Below, in pieces: positions 3,628-63,700 of a stretch of DNA of 64,000 nucleotides; within the stretch, counting starts at the first letter, position 1; each line of letters opens with the position of its first letter. The stretch is from NCBI GenBank assembly GCA_964357175.1, contig CAYHJU010000002.1, positions 598 to 64,597 on the forward strand, given 5' to 3'. This DNA is from an uncultured Candidatus Saccharibacteria bacterium (GTDB lineage Bacteria; Patescibacteriota; Minisyncoccia; GWC2-36-17; CAYHJU01). The position numbers and the translations under genes are program-made. The notes under the pieces were generated by a model that was given only the letters and a program-made list of their open reading frames with translations, made no database searches and was not told the DNA's origin.

Positions 3628-4059
3628 ATGAAAAAAATGTTTTTATTTTTATTTTTAATCGCTGGTTTTCTTGCCCCGCTTTCCGTCGGAGCCCAAGAAG
3701 GATGTGGCGTTCCGCCATATTTTAATTATATTTTTAATTTCGGCTTGGGCGCATCAGGTATTTTGGCCATAACAATGATTGTATTGGGAGCAGTACAAAT
3801 GATGCTCAACGCCGCAAATCCTAGCGCGCAAACTGCTGGCAAAGACAAAATAAAAAGCGCGCTTATGGGCCTTGCGTTAATTTTTGGGTCGTGGTTAATC
3901 TTATATACCATAAATCCAGATTTGGTGAATTTCAGTCAGGCGTTTAACTCTGTTTGTAATGACCCCATTCAATTACCAAGCGGAGGGGGGCCGGTAGGAT
4001 CACCATTTCAGGGTGGAGGAGGTAGAAGTGGCGGTGGAGGAGCCACCGGAAGTTGGTAA
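3628..4059 (+). CDS. putative VirB2/TrbC-like T4SS pilin (signal peptide + two hydrophobic helices + Gly-rich tail)
   Basis: Long signal peptide 'MKKMFLFLFLIAGFLAPLSVGAQ', then two TM segments 'GILAITMIVLGAVQMM' and 'ALMGLALIFGSWLILYTINP'. This is the typical TrbC/VirB2 pilin topology. The C-terminus is 'GGGGRSGGGGATG'. Confidence 0.4.
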   Translation: MKKMFLFLFLIAGFLAPLSVGAQEGCGVPPYFNYIFNFGLGASGILAITMIVLGAVQMMLNAANPSAQTAGKDKIKSALMGLALIFGSWLILYTINPDLVNFSQAFNSVCNDPIQLPSGGGPVGSPFQGGGGRSGGGGATGSW

Positions 4060-8683: not shown

Positions 8684-8789
8684 ATTTAGTAACAATTAGC
8701 TTGTTTTTTTGTTTGTTTTAATTTTTTTTGTATGTTATATTGGTCTTGCGACGTATTTTTTTGATATAATTTTGCATAATATTTTTTAT

Positions 8790-10169
8790 ATGAGTTGTGA
8801 ACAAATTTGGCAAATGGTATTAAGTGAACTTGAGCTGGTAATGCCCGAATCGAGTTTTCAGACATGGTTTCAAAACACCTCTATAAAATCTCTCTCTGGC
8901 GGAATGGCCACTATAAGCGTGCCCAATATTTTTACGAAGGGCTGGCTTGAAAAGAAATATTCGAAGGAAATTTTAAATATTTTAAAAAATTTAGATTGTG
9001 ACGCACGCGAAATAGAATATATTATAGACTACTCGCCAAAATCTTCCGTTTATAAAAATACTTCCAAAAAAACTAAAGCGCCTTCAAACAAAAACCTCGG
9101 CCATGTGGGAGACGATGATTTAAAACTCCCCGGGCTTAATATAGATGCCAAAACTGGATTGAACCCGAGATATGCTTTTGATAATTTTGTGGTCGGATCT
9201 TTTAACGAATTGGCACATGCGGCAGTTTCTGCTTCTGTGCAAAATTTAGGCGTTAGTTATAATCCGTTATTTATATATGGGGATGTGGGTCTTGGAAAAA
9301 CCCATTTAGTACAGGCCGCAGGAAATGAAATAAAAAGTTTATATCCTAATCTTTCTATCTTATATGTGCAGGCCGAAAAATTTACCACCGACTTGGTCCA
9401 CGCTCTTCAGCACCATAAGATGGACGATTTTAAGGAAAAATATCGTAGCATTGATGTTTTTATAATAGATGACATTCAATTTATAGCCAGAAAAGAGCAG
9501 ACCCAAATAGAGCTATTTTATACTTTTAATACCCTTTATGAAAAAAATAAGCAGATTATTCTAAGTTCCGACAGACCCCCGCGAGCGATTCCTGAATTAG
9601 AAGATCGTCTGCGTTCACGTTTTGAGGGTGGAATGATCGCTGACATCAGCGCGCCAAATTTAGAAACAAGAATCGCAATACTGAAAGAAAAGCTGGTTCA
9701 AAAAAACGCCTCGTTAGATGACGAGATTATAAACCACATAGCCAAAAATTTTGAAAACAATATACGCGAACTCGAAGGAGCTCTTATTAGAGTTTTGGGA
9801 TTGATAAAAATGACAAACACACTCCCGTCAGTCGAAATAATCTCGAGGTGGTTGCTCTCTACGTCTAGCCAATCAAATAAAAACATTTCATCTAAAAATA
9901 TTTTGGAGGTTGTTTCTGGTTTTTATGATATAGACGAAAAACTAATATTATCAAAAAGCCGAAGACAGGAAATAGTGAAGGCGCGTCAAGTTTCTATGTA
10001 TTTATTGAGAGAAATTTTACGTTTATCGCTTCCATCCATAGGCCAAAAATTGGGAAATAAAGATCATTCGACCGTTATTCATTCTATAGGCAAAATTGAA
10101 AACGGATTAAAAAAAGATGAAAATTTAATAGAAGAAATCAAAAAAATTAAACAAAAATTATACAAGTAA
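8790..10169 (+). CDS. dnaA: chromosomal replication initiator protein DnaA
   Basis: AAA+ Walker A 'GDVGLGKTHL'. DnaA-type C-terminal DNA-binding helix 'SRRQEIVKARQVSMYLLRE...LGNKDHSTVIHS'. The start was chosen at the 'MSCEQIWQMVLSELEL' DnaA domain-I-like N-terminus; an in-frame ATG at 8709 is an alternative. Confidence 0.9.
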   Translation: MSCEQIWQMVLSELELVMPESSFQTWFQNTSIKSLSGGMATISVPNIFTKGWLEKKYSKEILNILKNLDCDAREIEYIIDYSPKSSVYKNTSKKTKAPSNKNLGHVGDDDLKLPGLNIDAKTGLNPRYAFDNFVVGSFNELAHAAVSASVQNLGVSYNPLFIYGDVGLGKTHLVQAAGNEIKSLYPNLSILYVQAEKFTTDLVHALQHHKMDDFKEKYRSIDVFIIDDIQFIARKEQTQIELFYTFNTLYEKNKQIILSSDRPPRAIPELEDRLRSRFEGGMIADISAPNLETRIAILKEKLVQKNASLDDEIINHIAKNFENNIRELEGALIRVLGLIKMTNTLPSVEIISRWLLSTSSQSNKNISSKNILEVVSGFYDIDEKLILSKSRRQEIVKARQVSMYLLREILRLSLPSIGQKLGNKDHSTVIHSIGKIENGLKKDENLIEEIKKIKQKLYK

Positions 10170-10170
10170 A

Positions 10171-10266
10171 CCCCCACACCTAATTAATCTTAATGCGATA
10201 AAAAAATTATAAATATAAACAGAAAACATCTTGGACTGATACTAATTAAATTTTTAGGTGTGGGGG
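10171..10266. mobile_element. MITE-like palindromic element copy A (TIR CCCCCACACCTAATTAA / TTAGGTGTGGGGG, flanked by TAAA direct repeats)
   Basis: 10-17 bp terminal inverted repeats with an AT-rich interior. Identical flanking 4-mers at 10167-10170 and 10267-10270. It lies immediately after the dnaA stop codon. Confidence 0.6.
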
Positions 10267-10496: not shown

Positions 10497-11603
10497 ATGA
10501 TACAAGTCACTTTTACCAAAGATAATTTAATAAAAGGTTTACAAAAAGCCGAAAGATTTACTGGCAAAAACACAACTCTGCCAGTTTTATCTTCGGTATT
10601 ATTAAAAGTTGAAAAAAATAAAGTAAAGCTATATTCCACAGATCTTGAGGTGGGTGCAATATTTGAAGTTTCAGCTAAAACAGAAGAAACAGGTAGCGTG
10701 ATTATTCCAATTAAAAGCGTGATTCAATTTGTACAGAATATAAATAATTCCAATGTAATTTTTAAAATAAAAAAAGATAAATTGATAGTTGAGGGAGATA
10801 ATTACAAAACCTCATTTAATTGTTTAGAGGCGGAAGATTTTCCCGTTATACCGGACAACATAAAAGAAAAATTAATAAGCACAGAATCAGATAAAATGTT
10901 GGAAGGACTAATTAACACGGTTTCCATAATAAATTTTAATTCCAGTCGGCCTGAAATTTCCGGAGTTTTTATTTGTACTCAAAAAAACAGCATAAAGTTT
11001 GTTGGCACTGACAGTTTTAGATTAACAGAGATAGAAACTGCAATTGAACAAAAAAATGAAAAAGAAACATCTTTAATAATACCTTTAAAATTAGGACAGG
11101 AGCTGATAAAAATTTTCCAAGAAGAAAAAAACGAAATTGATATTTATTCAAACCAACATCAAATAATGGTTAAAAGTAAAAACTTTACGATAGTTTCACG
11201 CTTAATTGATGGTTCGTACCCACCCTATGAACAGATAATTCCACGCAATAATAAAACTAAGTTGATTTTAAATAAAAATTCTTTTAAAAAAGGATTAGAG
11301 ATGGCCAGTGTTTTCAGCGGAAAAACGAACGACATGAAATTTTCTTTTGATTTTGAAAAAAACATTTTAAAAATTTATTCTCAAAATAATGAAGTGGGTG
11401 ATTTCTCTTACGAAATAGATTTTGAAGGAGAAGGAGAGAGTCAGGAAATAGTTTTAAACTGGAAATTTTTTCTGGACGGTTTGAATAAAATTGAGGAGGA
11501 AAAATTTATTTTGGAAATTAACAGCGTCATTAGTCCAGTTATTATAAAAGGTCTAAAAAACAGTCACATGCTTTATCTCTTAATGCCCATAAGATCGGTG
11601 TAA
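10497..11603 (+). CDS. dnaN: DNA polymerase III beta sliding clamp
   Basis: N-terminus 'MIQVTFTKDNLIKGLQKAERFTGKNTTLPVLSSVLLKV' is typical of beta clamps. 368 aa. Directly after dnaA. Confidence 0.9.
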   Translation: MIQVTFTKDNLIKGLQKAERFTGKNTTLPVLSSVLLKVEKNKVKLYSTDLEVGAIFEVSAKTEETGSVIIPIKSVIQFVQNINNSNVIFKIKKDKLIVEGDNYKTSFNCLEAEDFPVIPDNIKEKLISTESDKMLEGLINTVSIINFNSSRPEISGVFICTQKNSIKFVGTDSFRLTEIETAIEQKNEKETSLIIPLKLGQELIKIFQEEKNEIDIYSNQHQIMVKSKNFTIVSRLIDGSYPPYEQIIPRNNKTKLILNKNSFKKGLEMASVFSGKTNDMKFSFDFEKNILKIYSQNNEVGDFSYEIDFEGEGESQEIVLNWKFFLDGLNKIEEEKFILEINSVISPVIIKGLKNSHMLYLLMPIRSV

Positions 11604-15659: not shown

Positions 15660-15753
15660 CCCCCACACCTAATTAATACAAAACCTTTAATTAAGATTTT
15701 TGGGAAAATGTTACCTAAATTTTAATACTTTGCGTGTTAATTAGGTGTGGGGG
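15660..15753. mobile_element. MITE-like palindromic element copy B (same TIR as copy A, flanked by TTTA direct repeats)
   Basis: CCCCCACACCTAATTAATA ... TGTTAATTAGGTGTGGGGG. Flanking TTTA at 15656-15659 and 15754-15757. Confidence 0.6.
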
Positions 15754-15766
15754 TTTAGCATAAATT

Positions 15767-15967
15767 ATGGCAGAAGACCAACAAGATGACGCTTTAAATG
15801 AAGATGGAATGGCTGGATGGGGTTCTAGTGGCGAAAATAGTGATCTGGATGGTGGTACAAGCGTTAAAAAAACAAAAAAAGTGTCAGATGACGAAGATGA
15901 TGATGGCGAATTTTCAATAGACGATCCTGATACGGACGACGAACTAGAGGACGAAGAAATAGTGTAG
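15767..15967 (+). CDS. small highly acidic (D/E-rich) protein, hypothetical
   Basis: 66-aa ORF, about 40% Asp+Glu. Bracketed by MITE copy B upstream and a GC palindrome downstream. Confidence 0.35.
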   Translation: MAEDQQDDALNEDGMAGWGSSGENSDLDGGTSVKKTKKVSDDEDDDGEFSIDDPDTDDELEDEEIV

Positions 15968-15973
15968 TTTAAA

Positions 15974-16003
15974 CCCCCCCCACCTACACGTAGGTGGGGG
16001 GGG
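15974..16003. repeat. 30-bp near-perfect GC palindrome CCCCCCCCACCTAC-AC-GTAGGTGGGGGGGG (hairpin/terminator; resembles back-to-back MITE TIRs)
   Basis: 14-bp stem including a C8/G8 run. It sits between convergent genes (acidic ORF + and ruvC -). Sequence is related to the MITE TIR CCCCCAC(A)CCTA. Confidence 0.55.
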
Positions 16004-16036
16004 TTGTATAAAATTCAAAGTGGAAAACTTATGCTT

Positions 16037-60571: not shown

Positions 60572-60600
60572 GGCCGATGTGCGTGTTGCACATCGGCCCT
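60572..60600 (-). terminator. rho-independent terminator for the high-GC gene (12-bp GC stem)
   Basis: gggccgatgtgc gtgtt gcacatcggccc. On the minus strand it is followed by a T-run, tttttctatc. Confidence 0.65.
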
Positions 60601-60625
60601 AGACCACTTTCGCCGCTTTTCTGGA

Positions 60626-61255
60626 CTACGCCGTCACGAGTTGGACGGCGCCATCCACGATGCGGAGGCAGTAGTCGGCCTTGAGAGGGAGCGGAGCGTC
60701 GCCCATGCGATTGCCGCTTGCGTCCTTCTGCCACACCGTTACGATCTGGCCATCGGGACGAAAGAGCGGCTGGCGCACTTCGAGGTTGATGCTCAGGGCG
60801 CTCTGGTCGAGAACCTCCTCACCGTTCTTGTAGAACGGATTGGAGAACGACCTTACGCGCCACATCGCGCTCTCGCAGATGTTCTGGAGGTCGATGCGGA
60901 TGGTGCCTCTCGCCGCCTTGAACTCATCAGAGCAGTTCACGAACTCACGGCGGGCGAAGAGGAAGCGTACCATGTGGTATGTCCTCTTTCTTCGGGGATC
61001 CTTGGCATCGATGCGCTCCTTGTAGAACGCGTCGACCATTTCGTACCCAGCCGCCTCGAGTTCTCCGAGAAACTCTGCGAGTGAGCACTTCTCGGTCGGT
61101 TCGATGACCATGATGCCGTTCGAGTAGCTCTTTCGCTCCACGCGCTCTTCCTGAGTCTCTGGGCTCCGGCGTTTCACCGACGTCGGTATCGCGTCGGGAT
61201 TTGTGAAGCTGAACTGCAATGCAACTAAACGGATGGTGCCATTCAGTGCGATCAC
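60626..61255 (-). CDS. hypothetical protein encoded in a ~0.7 kb high-G+C segment (probable recent horizontal acquisition)
   Basis: GTG start with GAAAGGGGG 7 nt upstream. Codon usage and G+C differ sharply from all neighbours. It has its own consensus promoter and terminator. Confidence 0.5.
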   Translation of the reverse strand: MIALNGTIRLVALQFSFTNPDAIPTSVKRRSPETQEERVERKSYSNGIMVIEPTEKCSLAEFLGELEAAGYEMVDAFYKERIDAKDPRRKRTYHMVRFLFARREFVNCSDEFKAARGTIRIDLQNICESAMWRVRSFSNPFYKNGEEVLDQSALSINLEVRQPLFRPDGQIVTVWQKDASGNRMGDAPLPLKADYCLRIVDGAVQLVTA

Positions 61256-61296
61256 GGTGGGCCCCCTTTCAGCTCAGGTTCAGTTAGATTATTGGA

Positions 61297-61355
61297 CTAT
61301 TTCACACAGTCTTGCTAGCAAGGCCGAGGGTTACAAGCAAAACTATGTGAAATAG
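61297..61355 (-). promoter_or_regulatory. palindromic leader/operator: outer inverted repeat CTATTTCACACA...TATGTGAAATAG enclosing perfect 12-bp palindrome CTTGCTAGCAAG
   Basis: Located between the promoter and the RBS of the high-GC gene. Confidence 0.45.
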
Positions 61356-61387
61356 CGCATGGAAAAGAACTATACTTCTATGTCCAC

Positions 61388-61416
61388 AGCATAGCAGATT
61401 TTATTGTGTTTGTCAA
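61388..61416 (-). promoter_or_regulatory. near-consensus sigma70 promoter on the minus strand (TTGACA-17-TATGCT) driving the high-GC gene
   Basis: Reverse complement of 61411-61416 is TTGACA. Reverse complement of 61388-61393 is TATGCT. The spacer is 17 nt. Confidence 0.5.
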
Positions 61417-61435
61417 GTATTTTGGGCAAGTGAAT

Positions 61436-63700
61436 TTAATCAAGAGAGACGGAAACGCCATCCATCTTTTCTCTAAAATGTGGATAGTTTTTTAGCTCCG
61501 GATCTTGCGCCAGCATTTCCCCTGCGGTTTTTTTAGCGGCATTTACCATCTTTAAATTGGCCAAAGACGACATCGCAAAGTCGGGCAGACCTGATTGTTT
61601 TTCTCCGACAAATTGTCCCGGGCCACGCAATTTCAAATCATATTCGGCAAGTTCAAATCCGCTGTGGGATTTTACTAATGCCTCAAGACGGTCAAATGCT
61701 TCTGGGTCGGTGGAATTTGTAAAAACAAAACAAAACGATTGCGTGTTTGATCTCCCCACGCGTCCTCTTATCTGATGAAGTTGCGCCAGACCAAATCTTT
61801 CGGCGCTTTCGATAATCATCAAAGTGGCGTTGGGCACATCCACCCCCACCTCCACAATGGAAGTAGATATTAAAATCTGAATTTTATTTGATTTAAAATC
61901 CTGCATTATTTTGTTTTTTTCGTCAGCCTTCATTTTTCCGTGGAGCATGGCGCATCTAAATTCTGGAAAGATGTTTTTGGATAAATTTTCAAATTCTTCT
62001 TTTACCGCCTTTATTTCTGATTTTAAATTTAATTTTTGTTGCGCTAAAACTTGGCGCGAGCTTGGCTGTTCTGAAAAATTATCCGCACCCTTTTGATTTT
62101 CTTGGCCGCTTATTTCTATTCGTGGACAGACTACAAATGCCTGCTGATTTTCTTTTAATTTTCCTCTTAAAAATTCATATGCCCGTGAGCGGTCTTTTGG
62201 CGAAACGATTTTGGTGCCGATCTTTTTTCTGCCCAAAGGCATTTCACGAAGCTGTGAAATGTCCAAATCTCCATAAAAAGCGATAGCCAAAGTGCGCGGT
62301 ATAGGGGTGGCGCTTAATGACAAAAGATGAGGGATTTTTCTAAGTCCCGATTTTGCTCGTAGAGCCTTTCTTTGTTTTATGCCAAAGCGGTGCTGTTCAT
62401 CTATTATGGCGAGCGCCAAATCTTGAAATTCTAAACTTTCCTGGATGAGGGCGTGCGTGCCTATGACAATATCAATTTTTCCCTCTTTTATTATTTTATA
62501 AACCCCCACACCTTTTTTATAAACATAATCCTGTTTATCTGTTGATTGATGCGATTTTTTTAACCCCCCATCTTTTATGTTTATTGCTTTTAAGGTGTGG
62601 GGGTAAATTTCTGGATTTTTATTTCTTAAATCAACCATCAATTTTTCACTCGATGTTAGGAGGGCTAGATTTATATTTTCACCAGAAAATAATTTTATAA
62701 AAGATTCAAAATGTTGCCGAGCTAAAATTTCAGTCGGCGCCATCAAAGCGACCTGTTTTTTTTCAAGAGCGACGTTAAAAGCGGCGATAGCGGCCACAAT
62801 GGTCTTGCCTGAGCCGACATCCCCCTCAATGAGGCGATTCATGGGCGTTGGTTTAGAAATATTTTGCAGAATTTCCCAAACGATCCTTTTTTGGTCATGG
62901 GTCAAAACGAAAGGGAGTTTCTGAATAAATTTTTTGATTTCTTCCAAATGTATTTTTAGCGCTTTGGATTTTTCTTTCTCTAAATTCCGGCGGTCTTTTA
63001 GGATACGCAGTTGTATTTCAAGCATTTTTTCAAACGCAAATCTTTTTTGGGCGTCTTTGCACAGTTTTAGGTTTGCAGGGAAATGAATATTTTGTAGGGC
63101 AACGTCTATTTTTGGCAGATGGTATTCTTTAATTGTTTTTGAGGGCAGGGTTTCTGGAATTTCTTTTACCAAATAAAACAAAGAATCAATTTTTTTTCTT
63201 AGCCACTTGGACGAGACGCCTTTCGTTTCAGGATATACCGGCACGATTTTTCCTGTCTGGGTAAGCCCAGATTGTCCAGAGACAATCTCAAAAGATGGGT
63301 GATACATTAAAATTCCGTTTTTGTCGCCAGACACCTTTCCGGAAGCGTTAATTTTTTCTCCAATTTTTAATGCTTTTATTAAGTATGGTTGTCCAAACCA
63401 TACCAGGCGCAAAGAGAATCCGTCCTGTTCAATAACGGCTTGGGTTAACATCCGATAACGAAAAGTCCTTACATTATGAACATTTTTTATGGTGCCAGAT
63501 ATTGTGGCGACTTCTCCAAATTTAAGATCTTTAATATTTTTGATATTGGAAAAATCTTCATATCGCGAAGGAAAATAAAAAAACAAATCGTGCACCTTTT
63601 GCAGGCCCATATTTTTTAGACGCAACGCATAAGAAGCGTTTGCCCGCGGAAGATCGGCCAAATTGGTTTCCATGCTTATTTTTATTTCTTTTTTTGTCAT
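61436..63700 (-). CDS. recG: ATP-dependent DNA helicase RecG (carrying an in-frame 35-aa insertion encoded by a MITE-like element)
   Basis: Wedge domain. Helicase motifs 'GDVGSGKT' and 'IIDEQHRFG'. TRG motif region. The insertion lies between motif I and the 'IVIGTHA' segment. Confidence 0.85.
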   Translation of the reverse strand: MTKKEIKISMETNLADLPRANASYALRLKNMGLQKVHDLFFYFPSRYEDFSNIKNIKDLKFGEVATISGTIKNVHNVRTFRYRMLTQAVIEQDGFSLRLVWFGQPYLIKALKIGEKINASGKVSGDKNGILMYHPSFEIVSGQSGLTQTGKIVPVYPETKGVSSKWLRKKIDSLFYLVKEIPETLPSKTIKEYHLPKIDVALQNIHFPANLKLCKDAQKRFAFEKMLEIQLRILKDRRNLEKEKSKALKIHLEEIKKFIQKLPFVLTHDQKRIVWEILQNISKPTPMNRLIEGDVGSGKTIVAAIAAFNVALEKKQVALMAPTEILARQHFESFIKLFSGENINLALLTSSEKLMVDLRNKNPEIYPHTLKAINIKDGGLKKSHQSTDKQDYVYKKGVGVYKIIKEGKIDIVIGTHALIQESLEFQDLALAIIDEQHRFGIKQRKALRAKSGLRKIPHLLSLSATPIPRTLAIAFYGDLDISQLREMPLGRKKIGTKIVSPKDRSRAYEFLRGKLKENQQAFVVCPRIEISGQENQKGADNFSEQPSSRQVLAQQKLNLKSEIKAVKEEFENLSKNIFPEFRCAMLHGKMKADEKNKIMQDFKSNKIQILISTSIVEVGVDVPNATLMIIESAERFGLAQLHQIRGRVGRSNTQSFCFVFTNSTDPEAFDRLEALVKSHSGFELAEYDLKLRGPGQFVGEKQSGLPDFAMSSLANLKMVNAAKKTAGEMLAQDPELKNYPHFREKMDGVSVSLD
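62503..62603. mobile_element. MITE-like palindromic element copy C, inserted in-frame inside recG (TIR CCCCCACACC / GGTGTGGGGG, flanked by TAAA direct repeats)
   Basis: Element is 101 bp plus a 4-bp duplication, 105 nt in total (35 codons). On the minus strand the TIRs are translated as 'PHTL' and 'GVGV'. No stop codon falls in the recG frame. Confidence 0.6.

Follow-up and report, generated by a model that had tools for sequence, protein, structure and literature searches.

The classic case of palindromic repeats that lie in-frame in genes is that of the Rickettsia palindromic elements (RPEs; Ogata et al., 2000, summarised in PMC10969869). Here we describe a mobile palindromic element of 101 nt, similar in form to a MITE (a transposable element of miniature size with inverted repeats), that lies inside recG in a 64-kb contig stretch of a groundwater Patescibacteria bacterium (the window; all coordinates are window positions). 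We name its family after the 10-nt core of its ends, CCCCCACACC. As RPEs are described in that summary, they are like the CCCCCACACC elements in being palindromic repeats of ~100–150 bp that sit in-frame in unrelated housekeeping genes and would be translated as an extra peptide, and in both cases the bacteria have small genomes and depend on a host. By the same description, each RPE family encodes a conserved peptide, whereas the CCCCCACACC elements share only their termini and have unrelated interiors. Also, the taxa differ, and the CCCCCACACC family is set apart from RPEs, as they are described, by its flanks (4 bp, T-N-N-A) and by a coding parent that can be identified. An earlier, sequence-only reading of the window called a transposon-derived insertion in a helicase gene unusual. 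This is true only in a relative sense, as RPEs are known (PMC10969869) and the CCCCCACACC family is also found in-frame in priA, uvrD, and other genes.

A second system to compare is Ssn (cd10448), a single-domain GIY-YIG nuclease of ~94 aa that cleaves single-stranded DNA adjacent to hairpin repeats (Chenal et al., 2025, PMC11893778). These repeats (NTS/SRM) flank the ssn genes and are multiplied in the genome, and the authors noted that the layout is like that of an insertion sequence (IS) (PMC11893778). This was the only relevant paper that we found on GIY-YIG proteins with inverted repeats, MITEs, or Patescibacteria. The nuclease of the CCCCCACACC family is likewise a single-domain GIY-YIG protein of similar size (~85–95 aa for the two systems) with intact catalytic residues, and its gene is bracketed by hairpin-forming repeats that occur genome-wide (8 of 8 genes). 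In contrast, each flank of an ssn gene forms its own 20–50-nt hairpin, whereas the flanks in the CCCCCACACC family are the two arms of one stem. NTS repeats are rarely inside genes, but CCCCCACACC copies can be. For the CCCCCACACC family, we document sites with and without the element, flanking repeats of 4 bp, and a deletion series down to miniature copies, whereas the Ssn paper did not show mobility with such pairs of sites or with miniature derivatives. Finally, the published SRM motif (HGTCWY..RNCYNB) had no match in the window, nor did it match any of 130 short and 8 coding elements.

MITEs derived from ISs with a DDE transposase share with the CCCCCACACC elements their short length, terminal inverted repeats, a short flanking direct repeat, many non-coding copies, and termini in common with a coding parent. 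They differ in that the CCCCCACACC parent encodes a GIY-YIG nuclease rather than a DDE transposase and is only ~290 bp, in that CCCCCACACC interiors are unrelated, and in that half of the CCCCCACACC copies have non-identical flanks. REPINs are species-specific, extragenic hairpin repeats of ~100 nt with long-lived copies, and they are thought to be moved in trans by a small nuclease-type enzyme (RAYT) that acts on single-stranded DNA. The CCCCCACACC elements are also hairpin-forming repeats of ~100 nt, and by analogy a single small nuclease-type enzyme may act on them in trans, but their termini have neither a GTAG nor a CGTC tag, and the associated gene encodes a GIY-YIG protein, not a Y1/HUH transposase. 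IS200/IS605 elements leave no duplication and have no terminal inverted repeats.

Our explanation for the locus is that a non-autonomous 101-bp hairpin element inserted in recG, is translated as part of RecG, and comes from a family whose full-length members encode a GIY-YIG nuclease. We consider this explanation, taken as a whole, to be likely. The spread of the family across phyla and its GIY-YIG-encoding full-length members are the main point that goes beyond the sequence-only reading.

The element in recG and its empty site

The host gene encodes a protein of 754 aa that is RecG, as it matches the NCBIfam equivalog NF008168 (765 bits, with a cut-off of 718) and RecG of T. maritima (1GM5, E = 1.8e-133). 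Between aligned blocks, the window RecG has 53 residues where 1GM5 has 13. The sequence-only reading had claimed a 101-bp element with terminal inverted repeats and a duplicated TAAA within this gene, and this was confirmed (coordinates are in Table 1). The terminal inverted repeats are perfect over 10 nt, and 12 bp are paired in the predicted fold, which is strong both as RNA (−32.9 kcal/mol, z = −6.6) and as DNA (z = −6.0). Element plus duplicated TAAA come to 105 nt and are in-frame and stop-free on the recG strand. The open reading frame (ORF) reads through as claimed, with PHTL and GVGV at the termini: ...NKNPEI-YPHTLKAINIKDGGLKKSHQSTDKQDYVYKKGVGV-YKIIKEGKIDIVIGTHA..., where the ends give YPHTL and GVGV and are followed by YKIIKEGK. 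Because there is no in-frame stop in the 105 nt, we strongly infer that the insert is translated into RecG.

Among 5.8 billion proteins, we found five close relatives of this RecG, and the best named relatives are Patescibacteria of groundwater metagenomes. Three of the five are filled, that is, they contain the insert (P0001, 100% identical to the window RecG; P0002, from L004, 91%; and P0003, from L006, 86%), and two are empty (P0004, from L001, 84%; and P0005, from L002, 80%). On the recG strand, the empty alleles of L001 and L002 read ...CCA GAG ATT ATA AAA ATG AAA AAA AAT GAA ATT TAT AAA ATA..., and the filled alleles of the window, L004, and L006 read ...CCA GAA ATT TA[CCCCC...GGGGG]TT TAT AAA ATA.... 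At the junction, the empty alleles have one TTTA, and the filled alleles have two, one on each side of the element. So, the empty site that the sequence-only reading had proposed to look for in RecG orthologues exists. We also looked for orthologues that have the segment but not the repeats, and both L004 and L006 still carry the repeats, although those in L006 are eroded at 3 positions.

The filled alleles also lack 24 nt (8 codons, IKMKKNEI) that sit between two GAR-ATT repeats in the empty alleles. As the next outgroup (P0006) carries the longer form at this site, the difference is a deletion in the filled lineage. The insert does amount to 35 residues, as the sequence-only reading had it, but because of the adjacent 24-nt deletion, the net gain relative to the empty orthologues is 27 aa and not 35. 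The comparison of alleles clearly indicates that the element inserted at a TTTA in recG, that this TTTA was duplicated, and that 24 nt beside the site were lost. We assume that the insertion happened in an ancestor of at least three of the sampled Patescibacteria lineages.

Could the segment instead be an ancestral, lineage-specific loop of RecG that is immobile and palindromic by chance? RecG proteins of the Candidate Phyla Radiation (CPR) do have other lineage-specific extra segments, such as residues 529–553. However, this idea is refuted by the empty site with a single TTTA in the closest relatives and by the identical termini and flanks at unrelated loci in many genomes, and we give it practically no chance of being correct.

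A structural model of the insert had also been suggested. In an AlphaFold2 model of RecG (alignment of 81 sequences, mean predicted local distance difference test [pLDDT] score of 78), residues 367–397 have pLDDT below 50, and the flanks are near 90. The low-scoring stretch is bounded by a strand (365–368) and a helix (398–405), both of which are confident. The 35 residues of the insert are therefore predicted to be a disordered loop of helicase domain 1, with the LLTSS strand on one side and, on the other, the helix that precedes IDIVIGTHA. The ratio of nonsynonymous to synonymous divergence (dN/dS) of recG is 0.07–0.08 among the filled lineages and 0.09 between the two empty lineages. The low ratio in the filled lineages indicates that recG with its insert is still under strong purifying selection, and RecG evidently tolerates the loop.

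RecG of the window has a second segment that is extra relative to RecG from T. maritima and E. coli (residues ~529–553, window 62044–62116, GQENQKGADNFSEQPSSRQVLAQQ). We considered it as a second element and rejected this, as it has no palindromic ends and is common to the relatives with an empty site. It is also modelled as disordered (pLDDT < 50), and it appears to be a lineage-specific loop.

The family across genomes and its nuclease gene

The paired terminus pattern occurs three times in the window, as compared to none in 100 dinucleotide-preserving shuffles, and the 10-mer, when 1 mismatch is allowed, is present 9 times, with 1.05 expected. The other two copies, with their 4-bp flanks, had already been pointed out by the sequence-only reading, which took the repeats for a mobile family that is not specific to recG; both observations hold. 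The three copies are alike at their termini only and their interiors are unrelated.

When we scanned one genome per species with the pattern A-CCCCCACACC-N60-90-GGTGTGGGGG-T, at least 117 stretches carried the family termini. Among the matches listed, the hosts are mostly Patescibacteria (Moran-, Nomura-, Doudna-, Yonath-, Giovannoni-, and Saccharibacteria, and others). About a quarter of the matches listed are in bins named Phycisphaerae/Planctomycetota, Omnitrophota, Nitrospinota, Bdellovibrionales, or proteobacteria, and some of these non-Patescibacteria contigs are over 100 kb and contain several copies. In viral contigs there was a single match, within a GC-rich repeat, which is probably due to chance. 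Nothing relevant to the two terminal 10-mers turned up in the literature, and the family is apparently undescribed as far as the searchable literature shows.

We counted copies in two sets, 127 paired copies (not de-duplicated) and 132 distinct copies. The core CCCCCACACC is identical in the 132 distinct copies, which are from other genomes. Position −4 is T in 122 of 131 and position +4 is A in 125 of 132 of these, and neither position was forced by the search; TNNA is present on both sides in over 90% of the 132. Identical 4-nt direct repeats flank 65 of the 127 paired copies (TAAA 25, TTTA 21, TATA 8, TTGA 5, among others). In the 132 copies, the inverted repeat extends beyond the core to positions 11–14, which are 70–97% complementary with varied types of pairs, and it reaches background by about position 19. 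We also noticed an excess of copies whose length is a multiple of three (61 of 127), but this is not intrinsic to the family, as it is gone after ~19 genic copies are removed (42/37/29). Two copies (L031 6836–6939 and L090 3749–3850) have another CCCCCACACC/GGTGTGGGGG hairpin nested within them, just inside one of their ends, which suggests insertion of an element into an element or duplication of an end.

In the loci that we fetched, all of the genic copies have a length that is a multiple of three, are stop-free in the frame of the host gene, and lie inside long ORFs. According to Pfam, the hosts are PriA, a UvrD-type helicase, a UVR-motif protein, the large subunit of an [FeFe]-hydrogenase, WecG, FemAB, a GT4 glycosyltransferase, and an O-antigen ligase (Wzy). 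The copy in priA splits the 3'-DNA-binding domain, and its site is orthologous in two Moranbacteria genomes. The termini are read in all three frames (YPHT..GVGV, PPH..CGG, and TPTP..VWG). The simplest reading is that only frame-keeping insertions survive and that these would be translated. We also considered genes that seemed to be restored only by deleting a copy (L024, L078, L090, L101, and L113), but these were rejected as spurious ORFs or as copies just outside the gene.

Another possibility is that the 105 nt are removed before translation, either by an intron-like RNA step or by excision of the DNA, so that RecG lacks the loop. The recG sequence would then run from ...GAAATTTA directly into TAAAATA.... 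The strong terminal stem does bring both ends together, and there is no sign of protein-level selection inside the insert (see below). Nevertheless, removal seems very improbable, because all of the genic copies keep the frame and are stop-free and because we found no credible gene that is interrupted by a copy. Also, at Rfam's gathering thresholds the whole window gave only a tRNA elsewhere and no family for the recG element, and within 62400–62700, at E up to 10, nothing had E below 0.5, so there was no match to an intron, ribozyme, or known structured RNA. We know of no bacterial pathway that would splice such a hairpin from an mRNA.

To find longer members of the family, we scanned metagenomes with the 18-nt end from the window genome (ACCCCCACACCTAATTAA). 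The pairs returned were of 27–36 nt (bare hairpins), 60–111 nt, 152 nt, 298 nt, and 303 nt. There is a single ORF (86–87 aa) in the 298-nt element and in the 303-nt element, and both ORFs encode a GIY-YIG nuclease (PF01541, E = 2e-17 and 5e-18, covering residues 1–71/73 of 86–87). This nuclease has 628 homologues of 84–87 aa at E of 1e-10 or better, and it is 70–86% identical across Moraniibacteriota, Giovannonibacteria, Omnitrophica, and Endomicrobiia. Across 51 sequences, there is no or almost no variation at the GIY, YIG, Arg, His, Glu, and Asn positions (Y5, Y16, G18, R26, H30, and E62 are among the invariant ones). Its best relatives of solved structure are the UPF0213 proteins 1ZG2 (E = 7e-5) and 1YWL.

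The family's repeats bound all eight of the GIY-YIG genes that we examined (L125, L141, L145, L155, L163, L166, L168, and L169). The full-length copies are 286–303 nt long and are filled by the one gene of 84–87 aa: its start codon is 14–27 nt from one end and its stop codon is in, or within ~12 nt of, the other repeat. The 4-nt flanks are identical for five of the eight (e.g., TAAA/TAAA for L145 and L163 and TAAT/TAAT for L168; in contrast, L155 and L166 have TTCA/TATA and L169 has TTTA/TGTA). In the 152-nt copy (L143), a remnant of 34 aa is left of the gene. The recG element is, by its sequence, a miniature member of a multi-phylum family of hairpin elements that encode a GIY-YIG nuclease.

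As GIY-YIG enzymes are not known transposases, the gene could instead be cargo or a hitch-hiker, with an unseen conventional transposase that moves everything with these termini. A 4-bp duplication and terminal inverted repeats are typical of DDE transposition, and the IS1380 family, which presumably has CC ends and a 4-bp duplication, would be a candidate source. We consider this to be improbable. All eight genes exactly fill the space between the repeats, and the nuclease is as similar across phyla as expected if the gene itself is mobile. There is also a deletion series from ~300 nt to 152 nt to ~100 nt to bare hairpins of 27–36 nt. Finally, in ~1 Mb of fetched DNA, no element large enough to encode a transposase was found between motif pairs (with up to 1 mismatch); the only wider-spaced pairs in these loci were at 141 nt (L121) and at ~900 nt (L111, where the motifs at 3863 and 4758 do not form a pair of arms).

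At two other loci (L083 317–676 and L111 658–1067), a GIY-YIG gene adjoins a complete 101-nt copy rather than being enclosed by the repeats. L111 also has a degenerate left repeat (CCCACTCACC) and three 4-mers TTGA, which bracket both gene and copy. This layout may be composite or nested and may bear on the origin of the short copies. In Giovannonibacteria (L145–L154), the 286-nt GIY-YIG element lies among clustered pilin-like genes of type IV secretion (TrbC / T4SS_pilin), with the same setting in many samples.

How might a family with a GIY-YIG parent move? GIY-YIG enzymes hydrolyse DNA, and cutting of single-stranded DNA beside a hairpin, as Ssn does, is a plausible mode of recognition. By analogy with Ssn nucleases, the nuclease would be supplied in trans, would recognise the stem into which the two termini pair, probably in DNA that is single-stranded, and would cut at the flanking T-N-N-A. 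Host functions would then finish the insertion at T/A-rich 4-mers.

More broadly, we tentatively propose a new class of DNA transposon, made up of the CCCCCACACC elements, although we put this at somewhat short of an even chance. In this proposal, the sole protein would be an 85-residue GIY-YIG nuclease, and a single-stranded hairpin would move between T-N-N-A sites, spread across phyla in groundwater and sediment communities, and seed miniature copies as new loops in RecG, PriA, UvrD, and other essential proteins. If so, Ssn-type nucleases would gain an ancestral selfish role, and the IS-like hint in the Ssn paper would become a testable hypothesis, with ends and flanks that are defined and with both states of the site, empty and filled. 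Tying the miniature copies to a parent that codes for only a tiny GIY-YIG nuclease would also give a candidate mobilising enzyme. At ~290 bp, the parent would be, to our knowledge, the smallest autonomous mobile element in cellular genomes, and for the Rickettsia elements we know of no candidate mobilising enzyme in 25 years. The family would be a second and phylogenetically remote case, after Rickettsia, of a rare phenomenon, selfish palindromic DNA that turned into protein sequence, and here the host proteins include helicases at the core of DNA repair and replication in genome-reduced Patescibacteria. Should the nuclease recognise the stem of CCCCCACACC in single-stranded DNA, it would also offer a new specificity for single-stranded-DNA tools.

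Slow divergence of the insert and other difficulties

Several observations weigh against our explanation. First, we know of no GIY-YIG enzyme that carries out strand transfer and of no basis for the joining step. Second, about half of the 127 copies with perfect termini have TNNA flanks that are not identical (including TTTA/TGAA and its mirror image, 14 copies, and TTTA/TGTA and its mirror image, 12 copies), and plain target-site duplication does not explain these. Third, there is no homologue of the GIY-YIG nuclease in the 64-kb window (tblastn). Fourth, the hosts outside of Patescibacteria were assigned from metagenome bins. Fifth, a single ancestral insertion is an assumption, because the recG tree of the five lineages is not resolved (the four-point sums are tied at 0.379, 0.379, and 0.385). 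Finally, the insert has diverged slowly. Four-fold sites of recG differ by 35–44% among the three filled lineages, but the 105-nt insert differs at just 7, 11, and 10 positions, as compared to 37, 42, and 46 expected at matched composition (P ~ 1e-11 to 1e-14), so it diverges 4–5 times more slowly than the four-fold sites. Synonymous differences within the insert are also depleted (0–1 versus ~7 expected, codon-matched, P = 1e-4 to 1.5e-3). An old neutral passenger would not be expected to diverge so slowly.

Ordinary constraint on the protein does not account for this, because ~12 of the ~14 substitutions inferred in the insert alter the amino acid; dN/dS inside the insert is near 1. What is preserved is the pairing. 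Among the filled lineages there are two compensatory pairs in the stems and one G-U-compatible change: at the outermost pair of the stem, L006 has T-A where the other two lineages have C-G, and at one pair of the inner 10-bp stem, the window has T-A where L004 and L006 have C-G. No change that breaks a pair was seen in either main helix across the three filled lineages, and by a rough estimate only ~0.05 compensatory double hits are expected by chance. Since the compensatory changes keep the stems paired, the hairpin should still form in vivo.

The copies in priA behave similarly. The orthologous pair has 10 differences in 87 positions, with 39 expected; this pair was ascertained by its perfect termini, but the interior alone has 10 differences in 60 positions, with ~27 expected. 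The slow divergence and the compensatory changes in genic copies thus bear on the persistence of hairpin repeats. We had also considered intergenic DNA as a neutral yardstick. The window and L004 differ by ~0.12 over the entire upstream alignment of 300 nt, coding sequence included, and by ~0.10 (by eye) over the ~140-nt spacer alone, where intergenic DNA can be aligned only in part. As the spacer is itself constrained, we rejected this yardstick.

The slow, stem-preserving divergence may have arisen from selection on the hairpin at the level of the host, from hairpin-templated repair, or from recent spread of the filled allele by recombination. In the first case, the hairpin would be domesticated: the host would keep the DNA or RNA stem-loop, or the RecG loop, for its own use, such as mRNA stability, translational pausing, or a protein-binding site. 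The rate of the insert, the depletion of synonymous differences even with codon matching, the compensatory changes, and the equally slow priA copies all point in this direction, and so does the retention of the insert in three lineages whose synonymous divergence (dS) is as high as 0.6–0.95. However, the predominance of amino-acid changes argues against selection on the protein, and the interiors are unrelated between copies, so there is no common functional sequence beyond the stem. Also, the L001 and L002 lineages do well without the insert, and hairpin-templated repair could keep the stems paired without selection. On balance, we view domestication as unlikely.

In the case of recent spread, the insert would be younger than the split of the three lineages and would have reached the same site in each by homologous recombination or by nuclease-stimulated homing, for example after DNA uptake. 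Ssn-type nucleases do act on transforming single-stranded DNA (PMC11893778). A young neutral sequence would be expected to show low divergence with dN/dS near 1, the filled alleles are not resolved as a clade in the recG phylogeny, and ~27 nt upstream of the insert are also nearly identical among the filled alleles. But there is no extended tract of low divergence beside the insert: in 150-nt windows on either side of it, the window sequence is equally close to the empty L001 and the filled L004. Nor does a young neutral sequence account for two compensatory changes among 14 substitutions, and genomes that differ at 12–17% of sites should only rarely recombine. We view recent spread as a somewhat unlikely alternative to an old insertion.

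Feature coordinates and neighbouring sequence

Table 1. Positions in the window of recG, of the element within it, and of the other two family copies
Feature	Position	Strand	Details
recG, 754 aa, host gene	61436..63700	-	insert is residues 366-400
Palindromic mobile element, MITE-like, 101 nt, without its own ORF	62503..62603	-	CCCCCACACCTTAAAAGC...AAAAAAGGTGTGGGGG on the recG strand
Terminal inverted repeat, left arm	62503..62514	.	+ strand: 10-nt family core CCCCCACACC (62503-62512) and 2 further paired bases
Terminal inverted repeat, right arm	62592..62603	.	+ strand, ends in GGTGTGGGGG (62594-62603)
Flanking TAAA, first copy of the 4-bp direct repeat	62499..62502	.	TTTA when read in the recG direction
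Flanking TAAA, second copy of the 4-bp direct repeat	62604..62607	.	from sequence and allele comparison
Inner 10-bp stem, arm 1	62519..62528	.	ATAAACATAA on the + strand; one pair T-A/C-G between lineages (compensatory)
Inner 10-bp stem, arm 2	62575..62584	.	TTATGTTTAT on the + strand
Junction of the inferred 24-nt deletion between GAR-ATT direct repeats	62606..62611	-	codon alignment of filled and empty alleles; just upstream of the element in the recG direction
Second family copy, 96 nt	10171..10266	.	TAAA/TAAA flanks; dnaA-dnaN spacer
Third family copy, 94 nt	15660..15753	.	TTTA/TTTA flanks; 21-nt inverted repeats; between tyrS and a 66-aa ORF

Just downstream of recG, the stretch 60600–61430 has a G+C content of 0.457 (versus ~0.38) and contains a 209-aa ORF (60626–61255, − strand) without a Pfam match. 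It is not homologous to the DNA downstream of recG in L001, L002, or L004, and it may be a local replacement or insertion.

The stop codon of dnaA (8709–10169) falls inside the left TAAA of the second family copy, and dnaN is at 10497–11603. The spacer between dnaA and dnaN is a frequent location of replication origins, and the cumulative GC skew of the window climbs from ~8 kb onward. Near the third copy, a perfect 16-bp hairpin (AACCCCCCCCACCTAC/GTAGGTGGGGGGGGTT, 15972–16005) directly follows the 66-aa ORF (15767–15967) and is preceded by TTTA. This hairpin looks like a terminator, but it may be a bare-hairpin relative of the family, similar to the 27–36-nt forms in L133 and L134.

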